Source of the DNA: Octopus bimaculoides
Lineage: Eukaryota
Length of the DNA: 37,318 nt
Direction of reading: 5' to 3'
NCBI RefSeq assembly: GCF_001194135.2
Contig: NC_068983.1
Span: 65,873,633 to 65,910,950, forward strand
Shown: positions 1,791 to 35,520 of the stretch, in pieces
How positions within the stretch are numbered: position 1 is the first letter of the stretch
Layout: each line of letters begins with the position of its first letter
Made by a program: the position numbers and the translations under genes
The notes under the pieces: model-generated
What the model was told of the DNA's origin: nothing
The model's input: the letters and a program-made list of their open reading frames with translations, nothing else
Databases searched by the model: none

Positions 1791-3500
1791 TAATTCGTCT
1801 TATTGGCCACAAAGGCTAATATCAATTAAAAACATGTAAGGACAAAGACAGGACGAAGGTTACAAAAGGTTTTGTCCGAAAAGGTAGGAAACTTCGTCTA
1901 AACAGAGGAAGAAAACGGAGAAAGATATAATAAATAAATAGATAAATAAATAGGTAAATAAATAAATAGAACTCCCAAAGGGGGAGGTGCATCGAAAAAG
2001 GAAAGGTTACACGTGGAAAAACCCATAAAACCACGGGAGCCTGGTCAGAAAATATAAGAAAGGGGTATAGAGCCCTTTCTCCTTTTACATTACCTTTCTT
2101 TTTTTTTCTACAGGTGTATTCTCAGAATTGGTCCGTTTATACTGGCCATTCTTCCAACAGTCACCCATCTTTCAACGAATTTGCTATGAGACAGCACTTC
2201 CCTCTCTACTCTCATCTTCCTTTTCAAGTGGAACTTGAAAAAGTTGATGAGGCCTTGGCCAAAGAGGAAAGTGTCTGTCTTTAGTCCTTTCAAACGGGTC
2301 CACCATATCACCTCTTTCGCTACAGCCACTAGGCATAGGGAAATTGCCTTGCCCTCCCGGTTAAAGGAGGTCAGCAGGTCGATCCTCACGATGGATTCAG
2401 CTGATAGCCGGATCCGTCCTACACGTGACGGTAGCTATTCGATATAAACCCACAGATCAGCAATGCTCGAGCACTGGACGAGTGCGTGCAGAACGGTTTC
2501 CTCGTCCTGAGCGCACCTCGGGCAGGCCCGGTTGAGAGCAGTTCCGTGCCGGTAGAGTTTATCTCGAACAGGTAGCGCACCTGGGTAGCACTGCCAGGCG
2601 AGGGACCTTTGGAAATTATCCATGGACCCCGGCCCAAAAGTTCTCCTGAATAGACTGTTTAGCTGACTATCTTCGACGCCTAGAGTTTCCTCGATAACGT
2701 CGTCGCACTTTTCCGCCACTAACCCTCTATAGAACGCTANNNNNNNNNNNNNNNNNNNNNNNNNNNNNNNNNNNNNNNNNNNNNNNNNNNNNNNNNNNNN
2801 NNNNNNNNNNNNNNNNNNNNNNNNNNNNNNNNNNNNNNNNNNNNNNNNNNNNNNNNNNNNNNNNNNNNNNNNNNNNNNNNNNNNNNNNNNNNNNNNNNNN
2901 NNNNNNNNNNNNNNNNNNNNNNNNNNNNNNNNNNNNNNNNNNNNNNNNNNNNNNNNNNNNNNNNNNNNNNNNNNNNNNNNNNNNNNNNNNNNNNNNNNNN
3001 NNNNNNNNNNNNNNNNNNNNNNNNNNNNNNNNNNNNNNNNNNNNNNNNNNNNNNNNNNNNNNNNNNNNNNNNNNNNNNNNNNNNNNNNNNNNNNNNNCAG
3101 CAGATGGAGCGGCTGTTGACAGAAGATGGAGCGCCTGACCAGTGGTACCTGACCCTTCCACAAAAAGTTGAAGAGCAAGCGTACTATCTTGGTTGACTAT
3201 CTTGGCGAACCGAACGCGAGATGTTGAACGGTTCCGATAGATGGCCGTTCACCCGTATGACCGAGCAGATGCCGCTGTATAAAGCAGCTATCCACCCGTG
3301 GAAGACTGGACCGAAGCCAGCTGCATTGAGAACAGCTGCCAGGTATCGATGGTCGACCCTATCGAAAGCTTTAGACTGATCTAAATTGATCAAAGCCGCA
3401 CCCCCGCCAGCTTCGTTACCCACCCTCTCTATGATGTAGCGCATGAGATGGAGGTTGTCGTGGATAGACCTGGTTGGCACGGCGCATGTCTGCGCCTTGC
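1791..3500 (-). mobile_element. 5'-truncated, internally deleted Tx1/L1-clade LINE (ORF2 remnant plus 3' UTR, ending in an (ATT)n run)
   Basis: RT motifs QTCAVPTRSIHDNL, LINLDQSKAFDRVDH and SRSVRQ (3184-3500). Post-RT LFNFLWKG. C-terminal CCHC zinc finger CPRCAQDEETVLHALVQC (about 2460-2520). C-terminus VIWWTR...LRIHL* ends at 2108. Frameshifted, with an N gap at 2740-3097. Confidence 0.92.
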
Positions 3501-3612
3501 TAATAATATGCGGCAGCTGCTAATACTACAGCTACTACTATTATGATAGCACAGAAATTTGAGGCCTAACTATCACCCTTACCACTACTCCATCCCTGTT
3601 ACTTTTGCTGTC

Positions 3613-25247: not shown

Positions 25248-27341
25248 TCTTTTATTCTTTATTTGTTTCAGTCATTTTATTGCGACCATGTTGGAGCACC
25301 GGCTTTCGATGAACATATCGAATTATGCCTTGTAAGCCTAGTACTTGTTCTATCGGTCTCTTTAGCTGAACCACTACGTTACGGGGACGTAAACACACCA
25401 AGATGGGTTGTCAAGCAGTGGTGGGGGGTCCAAACACAGACGCACAAACACACGCACATACATACACATGCATAAATGAATATATATACATATATATATA
25501 TATANNNNNNNNNNNNNNNNNNNNNNNNNNNNNNNNNNNNNNNNNNNNNNNNNNNNNNNNNNNNNNNNNNNNNNNNNNNNNNNNNNNNNNNNNNNNNNNN
25601 NNNNNNNNNNNNNNNNNNNNNNNNNNNNNNNNNNNNNNNNNNNNNNNNNNNNNNNNNNNNNNNNNNNNNNNNNNNNNNNNNNNNNNNNNNNNNNNNNNNN
25701 NNNNNNNNNNNNNNNNNNNNNNNNNNNNNNNNNNNNNNNNNNNNNNNNNNNNNNNNNNNNNNNNNNNNNNNNNNNNNNNNNNNNNNNNNNNNNNNNNNNN
25801 NNNNNNNNNNTTTCAGCCTTGAAGATGAAGATCGAACAGGACGTCCAGTTGAGTTTGATGATAAGCTCCTTGAGGCATTACTTGAAGAAAATTCTGCATC
25901 ATCAGTTGAAGAATTGGCAATAAAGCTTAGTTCAAAACATACAACTGTTCATCGTCTTCTTCAACAACTTGGAAAGGTTTCTAAACTTGGAAAATGGGTG
26001 TCTCATGAATTGTCCGAAAGCAACCGCAAATCCTGAGTTGACATCTGCTCTTCACTCCATTCTCGCGAACTCNNNNNNNNNNGAGTTGACATCTGCTCTT
26101 CACTCCATTCTCGCGAACTCATTTCACCCTTTTTGGATAGACTTGTGACTGGTGACGATAAATGGATCTTCTATCGAAATGTGAACCGTTGTAAACATTG
26201 GCTTGGTAAAAGGGAAACAACTGAACCACAACCGAGAAGGGAATTTCACGAGAAAAGGTTCTTCTCTCTATCTGGTGGGATTGCAAATTCACTTTGAATT
26301 GTTACCACCTAATGCAACAATCAATGTTCAAGTCTACCGTCGGCAATTAGAGCGTTTGAACCAAGCTTTGAAGAGAAAAAGACCCACTTTAGTGAATCGA
26401 AAAGGAGTGATGTTTCATCAGAACTATGTGCGACTCCACACTGCAAAGATTACATCACAGAAGATCGAAGAGGTTAGTTGGGAAAAAATTCCTCATCCAC
26501 CTTATTTTGCCGACCTTACTCCTTCAGACTACCATTTGTTTCGTAGTTTACAGAATCATTTGGGAGACATAGTTTTCGCAAGTCAGGAGGATGTCGAAAC
26601 TGACATTTCAGAGTTATTCGCTTTGAAACCAAGAGAGTAGTTTTACATTGATGGGATTAAAAAGCTTGTAAATGGATGGAAGGAAGTCATAGATAATCAG
26701 GGGAAGTACATTGATGATTAAGTTTCAATTAAATATAACATTTCATGATCACTTGTTTTCTTAATTCAAAATTCAGACAGAACTTATGGGATGACCTGAT
26801 ACATATGTATATACATATATATATACATATATATATATATANNNNNNNNNNNNNNNNNNNNNNNNNNNNNNNNNNNNNNNNNNNNNNNNNNNNNNNNNNN
26901 NNNNNNNNNNNNNNNNNNNNNNNNNNNNNNNNNNNNNNNNNNNNNNNNNNNNNNNNNNNNNNNNNNNNNNNNNNNNNNNNNNNNNNNNNNNNNNNNNNNN
27001 NNNNNNNNNNNNNNNNNNNNNNNNNNNNNNNNNNNNNNNNNNNNNNNNNNNNNNNNNNNNNNNNNNNNNNNNNNNNNNNNNNNNNNNNNNNNNNNNNNNN
27101 NNNNNNNNNNNNNNNNNNNNNNNNNNNNNNNNNNNNNNNNNNNATATATATATATATATATATATATATACGACATTACGACATGCTCTTTCAGTTTCCG
27201 TCTACCAAATCCACTCACAAGGCTTTAGTCGGCCCGAGGCTATAGTAGAAGACACTTGCCCAAAGTGCCATGCAGCGGGACAGAACCTAGAAGCATGCGG
27301 TTGGTAAGCAAGCTACTTCCTACACGACCACTCCTGCACCT
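25248..27341 (-). mobile_element. tRNA-derived SINE split by a mariner insertion (3' part 25248-25504, head 27144-27341)
   Basis: The minus-strand head has A-box-like GGAGTGGTCGTGTAGG and B-box-like GGTTCTGTCCC. The two halves are colinear with the copy at 20935-21330. Confidence 0.85.
25811..26799 (+). mobile_element. Mariner (DD34D) transposon, 5' part lost in an N gap; transposase pseudogene
   Basis: EDEDRTGRP, KWVSHEL, VTGDDKW, FHQNYVRLH (catalytic HDN decayed) and HPPYFADLTPSDYHLF; ends KYIDD* at about 26721. Right TIR ...CAGAACTTATGGGATGACCTGA followed by TA at 26800-26801. In-frame stops at 26034-26036 and 26638-26640. Confidence 0.95.
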
Positions 27342-29440: not shown

Positions 29441-30086
29441 CAAAAGGGGTGGAAGTTGAAGAATAGAGAGAGATGCTTTTATTTTTTACCACAGAAATAT
29501 TTCCTGCAACAACAACGCGTTGAGATTAATCTTTGAAACGTAACCGGAATATCCTAACGATTTAACTTTTGTGCAATTTTCTTATTTACGTCTAACGTTA
29601 AAGCTTTTAGCCCCTTAGGTTACTTTGTAATCTTGAACTGATCACATGTGTGTGAGTGTGTGTGCGCGCGGCTGCATACATATATATGTGTGTAAATATC
29701 TATATCTATATATTTATCTATCTTTTTATCTATCTAGCTCTTTATCTATCGATTTATCCAGCTATCTATATATGCATANNNNNNNNNNNNNNNNNNNNNN
29801 NNNNNNNNNNNNNNNNNNNNNNNNNNNNNNNNNNNNNNNNNNNNNNNNNNNNNNNNNNNNNNNNNNNNNNNNNNNNNNNNNNNNNNNNNNNNNNNNNNNN
29901 NNNNNNNNNNNNNNNNNNNNNNNNNNNNNNNNNNNNNNNNNNNNNNNNNNNNNNNNNNNNNNNNNNNNNNNNNNNNNNNNNNNNNNNNNNNNNNNNNNNN
30001 NNNNNNNNNNNNNNNNNNNNNNNNNNNNNNNNNNNNNNNNNNNNNNNNNNNNNNNNNNNNNNNNNNNNNNNNNNNTATATATACAG

Positions 30087-30136
<50 letters not shown>

Positions 30137-30339
30137 CATATATAGATATAAATATGTACATATATATATGTATATATATATATATATATAGATATATGCA
30201 TATGTACACATATATACATTATATATATATGTGTGTGGGTGTGTGTGTACATATATACATATATACATAAATATATATATATATATATATACCAGAACAA
30301 ACGAAAAGATACAACAAACCAAAATCACAAACATATTAG

Positions 30340-30966
30340 ACACCCAGACATCCACACAAACCCTACCAAATACAAACCAAAACCCCCCTCCTTACACTAC
30401 CAAACCCTCCAATAAACAAACACACAAAATATGCAAAACAAACAGGACACACACAACCAACAACCTATAACACTTGGAGAGTACAAACAGAATATGAACA
30501 ACCACCAACACATAACGCTGGACATCCTAAATGGATACACACATGGAACAATAGAGAAGTAGATAAAAATCAACACATAACCTACAATAAAAATCGAGGA
30601 AATCCAAACCATACAAATATCAACCACATGCGACACCACAAATTTGCAAGATGGATAGAAAACAACTACCACTGTCAAAACAATGCAAGCACACAATATG
30701 AACCATTCAAATACCCACAAGGAAACCTGAACCCCAGGAATGAAAATTGGCCCAACAAACGCAGAAGATGGGAAGAAAACAACTACCACAGACAAAACAA
30801 CACATACAGACCATATAGACCATCCCTGCCTCTACAAGAAAACCTAAAACCTAAAAATGGAATTTGGAGACGCAACAACACAACCCCTTTTTTAGGGAAA
30901 GGATACTTCAACAATATTCCAGACCCAACACATCAAAAATTTCGAATGAACACACGAAACACATAG
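30340..30966 (+). CDS. Upstream N/Q/T/P-rich open frame of the Penelope element (ORF1-like); stop-free from 30340, first ATG at 30628
   Basis: Frame +1 is open for 208 codons by manual translation. It contains a 39-aa tandem repeat and overlaps the RT frame by -1. Confidence 0.55.
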
Positions 30967-33245
30967 ACCCCAAAATAATACACCTATCTAAAAGAGAACT
31001 TAACGAAAATGAAATGAACCTACTACGAAAAGGCCTAAAATTTACACCCACACCCACTCCAAATCTCATAGAACTTAAAACTGATATAGACAACTTTAGC
31101 CTCCGCCTCCGCCTTATGGAGGCGGAAAATAAGGAAACAGAAGATAACTCAATCATAAGNNNNNNNNNNNNNNNNNNNNNNNNNNNNNNNNNNNNNNNNN
31201 NNNNNNNNNNGAAAAAAATCCCATTTCACCCCCCACAAGGGATGTGACAAACACCTAGACGCATACATAGAGACAATCTCCAAATTCCCTCTCAACACAC
31301 ATACATGCAAACAGAACTTCTGCAGAGGAGAAAAATAAGCCTCACAAATACTAAAAAAAATGACAAATCGATCATTTTAAAAGAAGCTGACATAGGTGGA
31401 GCAATAGTAATTATGGATACAGATTACTACAAAGAAAAGATACTGGAGATACTTAACAACTAGACATACTGCAAAGAGGAAGCAGTACAATCGGAGAAAG
31501 CAGCATTAAAAAAATTTGGAACACTAATCAATGAATACCAGGACTCCTTTACAGACAAGGAGAAAGACTGTTTATGCAACTCAAGAACAAAAAGGAGCAA
31601 TATTTATGGATTACCTAAAATTCATAAAAGCTCTGAAATACAGAGATCCATAAATGAACAGAGGAACCATTATATAAGAATACAAAGACCCGCAGACCTC
31701 ACAATGAGACCAATAGTTGTAGGGCTCCAAGCACCAACACAGCAACTAAGCCACTTCATAGATGTACTCCTCAAATCTTTATGCCCAATGATACCAAGTT
31801 ACATAAGGGATGACATAGACTTCCTCATACACGTTCCAAATACGGTTCCGGAAAACACCATACTTGCAAGCTTCGATGCCACATACTTATACACGAACAT
31901 ACCACACACCCTGGATCTAGAAGCGATAAAGCCATGGGTAGAAAAATACAGGGAACTCATAGATAAACGTTTCAAAACAGACTTTATCACCAAAGCCACC
32001 CAATTGATACTTGAAGAGAACACATTCTCATTTAACAAGTCATACAGGCAGATAAGGGGCACGGCTATGGGTACGAACTTCGCACCCTCATATCCCAACC
32101 TAGTGATGGGTTTCCTTGAGAACAAACTATACGATGAAATAGGGAACGTCTTCGAACACAACTTCAGAGAAGACATCAAGAAAAAGTGGAAACGCTACCT
32201 CGATGACTGTTTCATCTTTTGGAACAGATCAGATGATCTACGAACATTCCACAACATCCTCAACACATTGCACCCATCTATTCACTTCACGATAGATACC
32301 AACTACAACGAACTTCTCTTCCTAGACATCAGCATCAAGATACACAACTCCATCGTCACGACAAATTTCTACTACAAAAAAAACGAACACACCAATATTT
32401 AAATTTCTACTCCTGCCACCCATCCCACATAAAAAGAAACATTTCATACAGTATGGCAAGACGCACATGCAGCATAGTGACCGACTCACAAACACGCCAA
32501 ATAAGACCAGATGAACTTAAAATCTTCCTACTGGAACAAAAATACCCACTCACATTAATAAAAAACGGAATCTCAAGAGCAATGGAACTGCAGATCACAC
32601 AACTCAGAACTCCAAAAAAGAAAAACAAAGAACATCATCCATTTCATGAACACATACAACCCTGGACTCACCAACATGTTTCACATCATACATTACAACT
32701 TACCAATGGTCCTACAAAGCCCCCAAAATGGGAAACCTACTAAAAAATATTGCATAAAAAACAGTAAACGCCAAGAGAAAAACCTAAAGAAACATCTAAC
32801 AAGAGCAAAATTGTCATCAGAGAATAAAACCGAATTCTTCGTAAAAGAGTGTGGAGATGGTAGATGTGGAACTTGCAGTAACCCCATCTACAAATATACA
32901 GAGGGGAACAAACAAATAAAATTTAAGAGTGGCCACACATTCAAAGTAAATGCAGACATGAATTGCAAGACGCAGAACGTAATATACTGCATAACCTGCC
33001 CCACATGCAAGGAGAATTATGTTGGTGAAACTGGAAATTCTTTATGCCAGCGAGCCAGAATTCACCGACAACATGTCCGACAGGAGGAACTACGAAAGAT
33101 TCCACTGAGTGAACACTTAGAAGCATGTGGAGAAGGAAAATTTATGATCTTTCCTTTCTATAAATGCCCAAGAAATAACACCTCCTCCAGGAAAAATATG
33201 GAAAAACACTTCACAACAAAATTCTCACCCAAACTGAATGGCTGA
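30864..33245 (+). pseudogene. Penelope RT/GIY-YIG polyprotein, disrupted
   Basis: ORF pieces 30864-31247, 31704-32402, 32453-32743 and 32646-33245 carry consecutive RT, thumb, linker and endonuclease motifs. Confidence 0.93.
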
Positions 33246-33461
33246 AAAGATGAAAATCACAACCCATCTGGAACTATTAACTTAGTCTGTAAAATAATGT
33301 CCTCACAATGTACAGGAAATTGTATGCACATCTGTTTCATTGAGCTCCTCCACAAGACACTTTCCCTTGTACATTATTGCCCATCCTAATATCTTCACTT
33401 TTGTACAGAATTGTTCCTTATCTTCATTCCTCTTAAAAATATATATATATACGTGTGTGTA

Positions 33462-33538
<77 letters not shown>

Positions 33539-33548
33539 NNNNNNNNNN

Positions 33549-33618
<70 letters not shown>

Positions 33619-34154
33619 GCTGTGACTGGTGAAATATCACTATTTCTGTGATCATGTGTACTGGATGAAGGACCAAATTTGTAAAGTAAGCTGTAATTTT
33701 TTTAATATTTCACCACAATTTTCATCCTTTCACATACTTCACTATCTTTGCATTTTCACACCTTTACATGTACTTTCTCTATTTTTGTAATTATATTTAT
33801 TTGTATTTTCATTCCATAACGGATTTGATCCTAAAAGTGAATCCAAAACTATTTTAGAACTTGTTATTTCAGTATCTAAAACAATGGCACCATTTGCCAA
33901 TTTATATTGGTAAATGACTACAGAAATGCTATTTTATATTTATTTTTGATTGATGCCTATGACAAAATGAACTTACCAATATTTAGATACCTCACTCATT
34001 GGTTCATAACAATATTTCATTATTCTTAATCTTTATTCAACTTTGGAACAACAGAGCCTAAAAAGAGCAAGAAACCCAGATAGTGGAACATTTTTGTGCC
34101 AACTAGAATTGAACCTGTTTAACTTGGTTTTCATATTTGTCTCCTTCCTTTTTT

Positions 34155-34535
34155 GAACTAACCAGCTGTATAGATGTAAACACAATTCCTTCTTCTTACT
34201 TTCTTTCTTCTATCTTTCCTTCTCTTTTCGATTTACACTCCTTTCAGATACGTTGCACACACACACACACACACGCATACCCACACACACACACAAACAA
34301 ACACACCCACACTCTCTCTCACTGGACAATGATGGCAACTTTTTGAAAAAAGAAGTTTCTTCCAAACAATGCCCCACCTTAAATAGCCACCTGGTTTTGC
34401 CATTTTTAAGGACCAAGAATCAACTTGTCATTGAAAGAACTGACCAGCTGTAAACACAATTTTCTTCTTTCTTCTTTCATCTTTCCTTCTCTTTCCCCGT
34501 TGACACTCCTTTCCGATACACAGGCACACATATAA

Positions 34536-34577
<42 letters not shown>

Positions 34578-34580
34578 TCT
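34155..34580 (+). repeat. Diverged tandem duplication, period about 282 bp
   Basis: GAACT(A/G)ACCAGCTGTA..AACACAATT..TCTTTCCTTCTCTT..ACACTCCTTTC(A/C)GATAC..(CA)n occurs at 34155 and 34437. Confidence 0.8.
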
Positions 34581-34649
34581 CACTTTTCCCCCCATTCCTC
34601 ACCCTCTTTTACTATACTATATATCTCTCTCCACCACTACACATTCAAT

Positions 34650-34979
34650 AATACTATAAAAAGAGATTGTGGATTTACTGTATTTCTCATATTTAAAAGA
34701 ATTGATATGTGCAGCGTGTCGTTGTTTAAAATTGATAGTTCATCCTATATATATATTGTTGTAGAATTGTGTAGCGTCTTGAGGACGGTGCATTTGTAAA
34801 TTACATTAGACCTTCTGCAACGGATTTGTAGAGGGGAAAATGGTTCCAGGGCGGCAATTACATAGTAGTGCATTGTGGGTATTATTCTCAGGAATGGGGG
34901 AAGTAATATTGCCTAGTGAGAGGTTAGAGATGAGGTAGATTGGTCTACGTTATCAACTTTAATATTACTATTCTTCTTC

Positions 34980-35037
<58 letters not shown>

Positions 35038-35341
35038 TACTAGTCTAAAGTATAGGGTTCGATGTTAGAGCTATGTATGTGTTGTGCTCTCGTGTATTCA
35101 GAGTTGTTTCAGTGTATATTTTGTCCATAGAAAGAAAGTTTTCGTCTATTAAAGATTGTTAATATAAACTCAAAGTTGGGTGGGGAAGAATAGGATAGCT
35201 TTAAAGTAGATCAAATAAGGATAGCGTAATATTTATATTGACGAAGGAAGTTGGTGTCTAATATATTAAAAAGGGATTTGGCTAAGTTCTTAACGTTTGA
35301 TGAGAAGGGAGGTGTATACCATAGAATAGAGCGTCCACTGC
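34650..35341 (-). mobile_element. Second-family Penelope-like element 3' fragment (linker + GIY-YIG), Naiad-like
   Basis: Minus strand: RSILWYTPPFSSNVK..LDTNF..TLKLSYSSPPN, then CNCRPGTI.PL..RCRRSNVIYKCTV, then IYIG*T.NFKQRHAAHINSFKYEKYSKST. Interrupted by (ATT)n at about 34975-35040. Confidence 0.8.
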
Positions 35342-35520
35342 TTTTTTTCATTTTCTCTTCCTCTTTCTTTCTTTCTTTCTTTCTTTATTTATTTATTTTT
35401 ATTCTCTCAATCCTTTTTATCAATACCATTTTCCTCCTAACATACTTATCTATTCTCTTTTTTCTATTTCCTTCTCCCTATCAGTATATTCTTGAAATTT
35501 CATTTTCACTACAAGACCCC

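Follow-up and report, generated by a model that had tools for sequence, protein, structure and literature searches.

The locus described here raises the question of how an endonuclease-bearing Penelope-like element (PLE) makes its enzyme when the frame encoding the reverse transcriptase (RT) together with a GIY-YIG endonuclease (EN) lies at -1 relative to a long upstream frame (ORF1). Canonical EN+ PLEs are described as single-ORF elements in the accessible part of PMC8557442. As judged from the sequences compared below, the RT-GIY-YIG frame is very probably reached by a programmed -1 ribosomal slip on U UUU UUA. The gag-pol-like frameshifting proposed in the first-pass annotation of this DNA is thereby supported at the level of sequence.

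The window, i.e. the whole 37,318-nt stretch of Octopus bimaculoides DNA that was analysed, carries at bases 30291-33504, between (TA)n tracts, a PLE of Neptune type with an endonuclease, in a copy that is dead and 5'-truncated (Table 1). The order of domains, RT followed by a C-terminal GIY-YIG endonuclease, is that of EN+ PLEs, with both Pfam scores falling just under the curated cut-offs in this decayed copy, and the presence of GIY-YIG sets the element apart from the endonuclease-free Athena/Coprina EN- PLEs. The RT-EN frame of the window copy is interrupted by several stops and frameshifts. By eye, a Cx2-5CxxC linker precedes GIY-YIG with the longer spacer of Neptune and not that of Nematis (rows of Fig. 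S2, PMC8557442), and the RT4 motif resembles two Neptune rows of Fig. S1 of the same source. A hammerhead-like core motif is repeated in the related locus L122 and present in L123 and is absent from window positions 30280-35500; an Rfam search of six loci gave no hammerhead match, the only matches being microsatellite-driven miRNA ones.

Table 1. Features of the PLE copy, numbered from the first base of the window.
Feature	Position	Strand	Remarks
Microsatellite, (TA)n/(TG)n, where the copy is truncated at its 5' end	30076..30290		Homology of sister copies begins at ~30291
ORF1, 3' part, low-complexity N/R/H/Q/T-rich tail	30291..30966	+	Open 30340-30966
TAA ending the RT (-1) frame, 12 codons ahead of the heptamer	30852..30854	+	In most sister copies TGA instead
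Slippery heptamer T TTT TTA in the ORF1 register	30888..30894	+	
GGG and weak possible hairpin 3' of the heptamer	30895..30927	+	Structure not significant
ORF1 stop TAG, 25 codons on counting from the UUU codon	30964..30966	+	
RT N-terminal motif block IIHLS...KGLKFTPT, -1 frame	30975..31052	+	IIHLS at 30975, KGLKFTPT at 31029-31052
Assembly gap (N) within the RT frame	31161..31210		
RT core piece	31464..32402	+	Pfam RVT_1, E 1.1e-6, 28.9 bits, just below the 29.6 cut-off
Cx4CxxC zinc-finger-like linker CGDGRCGTC, Neptune/Nematis type	32850..32876	+	By-eye comparison with Fig. S2 of PMC8557442
C-terminal GIY-YIG endonuclease and stop	32976..33245	+	Pfam E 3e-4, 21.5 bits, below the 22.6 cut-off
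3' untranslated part leading into (TA)n/(TG)n	33246..33504	+	Common to L031

Several other features of the window were observed. The ORF1 tail contains an in-frame 117-nt duplication (30648-30750 and 30765-30867, 73% identity) which is common to the closest copies of the element (family A, see below). Behind the 3' microsatellite, ~1.1 kb (33583-34666) recurs in inverted orientation upstream of L032 (85%) and partly downstream of L031, and might belong to the element as a long 3' end or a pLTR. Decayed transposase pieces, presumably mariner/Tc1-like, can be read from the translation of 25476-26640 (+), and decayed pieces of a non-LTR retrotransposon RT from that of 2435-3519 (-).

The two-frame layout given in the first-pass annotation was reproduced from the sequence and its translation, coordinates and register of the heptamer included. 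The ORF1-side frame is open for 208 codons from 30340 and reads P F L G K (CCT TTT TTA GGG AAA), so that the heptamer stands in the X XXY YYZ register, within the overlap of the 0 and -1 frames, as in programmed -1 signals; translation of the -1 frame, open from 30855, gives F F R E R and continues into the Penelope motif, ahead of which there is no ATG, the first one in this frame (31014) lying inside the motif block. The interval 30340-30966 is indeed an open frame; its first base, however, is not the start of ORF1, the preceding TAG being TGG in sister copies. ORF1 continues ~1 kb further upstream in fuller copies, and its conserved helical core, which the window copy lacks, lies upstream. 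The sense strand of the element (2955 nt) has no run of at least five T other than that in the heptamer, and the chance of an in-register T6A among the 37 codons of overlap, calculated from base composition, is p ~7e-4.

In a decayed copy, such an arrangement could be an artefact: the ancestor would have been a single-ORF element and the window copy would have lost a T. A DNA search of the same genome yielded at least 44 matches (40 of 77 candidates scored), and 42 copies span the heptamer site, L027 having been left out because it starts at the site. The close copies form three groups, A being ~90% identical to the window and B and C ~68-77%. A consensus with seven T, named beforehand as the outcome that would speak against frameshifting, was not seen: the seventh T is present in 3/42 copies (3/19 in family A, 0/5 in B, 0/18 in C), and all three family consensuses keep TTTTTTAG and the offset frames. 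In the three consensuses, the ORF1 frame is stop-free over ~43 codons before the heptamer, and a stop closes the -1 frame 4-12 codons before it. The exact T6A is found in 9/18 aligned A copies and 11/18 C copies, point changes within the run being frequent, as dead copies would lead one to expect. An artefact of decay would fit the breakage of the window copy elsewhere and the three close family-A copies whose seven T join both frames, but the extra T is missing in 39/42 close copies and intact relatives in other hosts show the same offset; the close-copy counts, the family consensuses and the metagenome loci described below refute it and reduce its probability to practically nothing. The loci L085 and L083 and the protein P0102 also read as fused, and fusion in these as well as in the seven-T copies is likely the result of decay or gene-model stitching. 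A tree of the family-A copies did not show whether those with seven T have a common origin. The substitution pattern singles out no frame in the 30 codons before the heptamer, which belong to the low-complexity tail, and favours the -1 frame after codon 25.

The expectation that related families would carry the heptamer was borne out throughout the RT clade of the element, with the same register and frame offset in distant octopus families and in metagenome loci. Forty distant loci with ORF1 were taken from the same genome (ORF1 core 32-48% identical), and 19 of them showed a recognisable RT N-terminus; exact TTTTTTA lies 52-75 nt upstream of the RT N-terminal match in 15 of these 19, in register in 10 and off by small indels or alignment offsets in 5, while 2/19 have one mismatch and 2/19 none or a degenerate run. 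Since the ORF1 alignment was nowhere conserved enough to serve for scanning loci, metagenome contigs were scanned with the RT alignment, which gave 79 loci, including 30 near the window clade; 21 of these span the junction, six lie on contigs that end before it and three are truncated copies. T6 is present in 21/21 junction-spanning loci, five of which are near-copies of others, leaving ~16 independent ones. It is in register with RT in 15/21, the other six having a broken RT frame in between, and the seventh base is A in 16/21 and G in 5/21, both giving Leu. In 10 of the 12 core-bearing loci the ORF1 core is contiguous with the heptamer in an open 0 frame (283-549 codons or until the contig end) and RT lies at -1; the -1 frame opens just 0-12 codons ahead of the heptamer (0 codons in L127, L128, L131 and L136). 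Two overlapping frames in the consensuses and in intact relatives depart from the single ORF of EN+ PLEs. As a control, in-register T6A/G within the first 40 codons of the RT frame was found in 0/43 other PLE loci. The conservation of the heptamer thus exceeds what coding need and chance would give, as in programmed -1 signals. A quick RT tree of 57 rows (two short rows omitted, without bootstrap or named references) placed 26 T6 rows in one clade with an SH-aLRT of 100. The GGG after the heptamer is not kept across this clade.

Two loci are worth separate mention. L156, outside the clade, has an in-register T6A/G; its upstream frame, of 559 codons, is of a different kind. In L125, the site corresponding by homology to the L122/L132 heptamer is degenerate, and 12 codons upstream there is, in register, a TTTTTTG, possibly a replacement site.

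Conservation of this kind might also arise if ORF1 merely required an FL dipeptide, encoded by T6A/G, and RT-EN were produced by reinitiation or internal initiation. In support, the first ATG of the -1 frame in the consensuses of families A-C occurs at codon 42, and the killifish Neptune is reported with two non-overlapping ORFs in the portion of PMC12602865 at hand, yet the codon-42 ATG already belongs to the first conserved RT motif, and many loci lack any ATG over 50 codons. Moreover, a required FL would permit TTC, CTN and any preceding base, whereas 21/21 covered clade loci have T TTT TTA/G, and initiation of either kind therefore seems very improbable. The programmed -1 shift is inferred because of the layout, the register, a seventh base restricted to A or G and an RT frame that is closed immediately ahead of the heptamer.

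ORF1 is a real protein-coding gene under purifying selection. Between the A and C consensuses, its core shows a dN of 0.143 and a dS of 1.65 (dN/dS ~0.09), with 22/14/63 differences at the three codon positions. The core, 123 residues long, gave 150 scored matches in the same genome, down to ~30% identity, and is also found in L031. Its AlphaFold2 model is all helical, with four helices and a pLDDT of 89.5. The model had no match in PDB at E <= 0.001, neither to Gag nor to another fold, the ORF1 pieces had no match, esterase included, in Pfam, and a search of the ESM Atlas with the core returned no usable match. A profile search revealed 965 clusters at E <= 0.001, whereas a word-based protein search gave only two relatives; the best 150 of these 965 are 100-750 residues long and none of the 150 is a full-length ORF1-RT-EN protein. 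Among the 84 homologues with a tail of at least 100 residues after the core, FL occurs within the last 40 residues in 68 and within the preceding 40 in 4, a few others having FF. Since U UUU UUA/G encodes FL in the ORF1 frame, FL at the C-terminal end is a protein-level trace of the heptamer that is independent of the DNA comparison.

One ORF1-like frame was found in a different setting. The 648-codon frame L115:3-1946 (+) ends in a homologue of the ORF1 core, has no RT match downstream and agrees in its reading with the C-terminal portion of P0006, a 750-aa annotated octopus protein, whose N-terminus carries a motif that we take to resemble PAM2. L115/P0006 is possibly a domesticated ORF1.

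The frame offset could, in principle, also be bridged in the RNA or during its copying. If RNA polymerase II or the element's own RT slipped on the run and added a T, the in-frame versions would supply the enzyme, and in vitro HIV RT does produce indels of +1 and -1 at U6A, as stated in the available part of PMC5737442. The seven-T copies of family A fit such slippage, which may explain them and may serve as a minor side route. However, it would make the codon register unnecessary, yet X XXY YYZ is found at every intact locus; no seven-T copy occurs in families B and C, and no indel at the site is seen among the RNA-read rows listed. As the main source of the enzyme, slippage thus appears as improbable as internal initiation. 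Splicing is less probable still. Here, the junction of TTTTTTAG with the following G would be a 3' splice acceptor, and a spliced RNA without the ORF1 tail would make RT-EN. The poly-T stretch with TAG is acceptor-like, AG stands at positions 7-8 in 23 of 28 representatives (themselves chosen for T6), and conserved introns are known in PLEs according to the Fig. 1 legend of PMC8557442. An acceptor, however, would not require six T in a fixed ORF1 register, and AG is lacking in 7/21 metagenome loci of the clade, in five lineages (TTTTTTG-T, TTTTTTG-C, TTTTTTA-T, TTTTTTA-C), as well as in octopus L104. In addition, no joint at the site is found among those listed for three RNA runs (depth ~5-17, ~6% of each read). 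RNA reads (raw runs with the same species label) lie on both strands at low depth and are for that reason uninformative on an element-driven transcript.

The first-pass annotation saw no strong hairpin downstream of the site, and folding agrees: the fold of 30895-30980 has an energy of -7.6 kcal/mol (z -1.27), and that of the 50 nt 3' of the window heptamer -6.3 kcal/mol (z -1.8). No shared 3' structure was detected over the 28 representatives, picked for having T6 (mean z -0.34 +/- 0.23), strong hairpins being present in L127 and L143 only; the 3' stimulatory hairpin or pseudoknot of programmed -1 signals was thus not revealed by folding. The G+C content is higher in the first 20 nt after the heptamer (0.50 vs ~0.38; 0.60 vs ~0.43). 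Frameshifting in the window family would probably act through the slipperiness of the heptamer itself and its G/C-rich 3' context.

The position of the ORF1 stop provides a further regularity. It lies exactly 12 residues from the F in 21/68 proteins and closer in 0/68; at the DNA level, stops after 3, 4 and 11 codons are found in L131, L156 and L104, respectively. Because the 12-codon spacing is concentrated in two deep sublineages (19/26 and 4/4 rows), it was inherited and then conserved and did not arise many times over. In these two sublineages, the fixed stop would suit a ribosome held up in a queue whose leading member is terminating. A bacterial study (PMC7544508) shows that ribosomes queue behind terminating ones and that frames shift at stops; in its available part, the mechanism proposed here is not shown. 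The same spacing was considered for the window family and rejected, its stop at 25 codons giving no fit; stops at 22-25 codons can be no more than a by-product of Ile codons in the RT motif.

Other heptamers were met among more distant loci. Close to where the RT frame begins, twelve have an in-register U UUA AAC and one a U UUA AAU (L151, L154, L159-L161, L164, L165, L167, L170, L176, L179, L180 and L184). A C-terminal GIY-YIG is present in 10 of these 13 loci, and their upstream frames are up to 992 codons long. Directly after the heptamer comes the ORF1 stop in 7/13; it is 12 codons on in L170, L180 and L184, while 4/13 have a GACC/GGTC stem 6-9 nt downstream. They form a separate RT clade (SH-aLRT 99), which includes two rows without a perfect heptamer. 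Another three PLE RT loci, L175, L186 and L188, have overlaps of ~200 codons between the upstream and RT frames with an in-register A AAA AAC; in L186, the only one with a complete C-terminus, no endonuclease was seen.

The heptamer overlap is a real, clade-wide feature. With programmed -1 frameshifting as the preferred reading, most ribosomes would finish ORF1, whose product, the helical core followed by a basic tail of low complexity, probably packages RNA or oligomerises. A minority would shift on tRNA-Phe/tRNA-Leu to produce ORF1-RT-EN; a high ratio of ORF1 to enzyme would result, as in gag-pol. Telomerase has its closest relatives in the reverse transcriptases of PLEs. Those PLEs that carry an endonuclease are modelled and annotated as single-ORF elements. 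If this clade makes its enzyme solely by frameshifting, consensus libraries and functional constructs miss an N-terminal protein and the control of the ratio, and ~965 clusters of unnamed proteins are retrotransposon ORF1s. The clade would also supply many natural eukaryotic -1 cassettes without an evident RNA stimulator, and with them a direct test of whether stop-codon position alone can drive frameshifting. A bolder generalisation would make -1 frameshifting a widespread, overlooked rule in EN+ PLEs, with U UUU UUA/G and U UUA AAC as the classic heptamers that at least two separate clades, each with its own, use where ORF1 meets RT, and with some sublineages swapping RNA structure for a fixed ORF1 stop 12 codons on, where the terminating ribosome would park the next one on the slippery site; this we regard as a conceivable proposal which is rather to be doubted than accepted.

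A frameshifted ORF1 is already in print for some PLEs, which we take to be the EN- Athena/Terminon elements. According to the Fig. 1 legend of PMC8557442, which leaves the clade unnamed, a frameshift with a pseudoknot can set ORF1 apart. The endonuclease-bearing clade with its conserved heptamer shares with the PLEs of the legend the succession of ORF1, frameshift and PLE RT, but the window element has its own C-terminal endonuclease and no conserved pseudoknot was seen on folding. In our literature search, with Repbase reports and most subscription journals outside its scope, no programmed frameshift was found described in a GIY-YIG PLE; the searched part of PMC5009743 does not mention Penelope, and the accessible parts of PMC6431247 and PMC3846280 hold nothing on frameshifting in PLEs.

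In its RT N-terminal motif block, DKG region, Cx2-5CxxC linker of Neptune-length spacing and C-terminal GIY-YIG, the element resembles the Neptune clade as presented in the available parts of PMC8557442 and PMC12602865, and so it does in its (TA)n flanks, 5' truncation and the hammerhead-like cores of L122 and L123. Unlike in canonical EN+ PLEs, there is an ORF1 of 400-550 codons, whose helical core belongs to no Pfam family and whose overlap with the RT frame holds a conserved heptamer. A short upstream ORF is described for the killifish Neptune (PMC12602865, in part), and esterase ORFs are mentioned for Neptune-like PLEs in the accessible part of PMC5408684, whereas none was present in the ORF1 pieces scanned here. 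The HIV-1 gag-pol site, given as AAU-UUU-UUA-GGG in the available part of PMC5737442, has the same UUU UUA GGG in the same register. It differs in that no strong stem-loop follows the heptamer of the PLE, that GGG is not conserved in the clade and that ORF1 has no Gag fold match. PLE and HIV-1 have come to use one slippery heptamer by convergence, and their resemblance does not imply homology.
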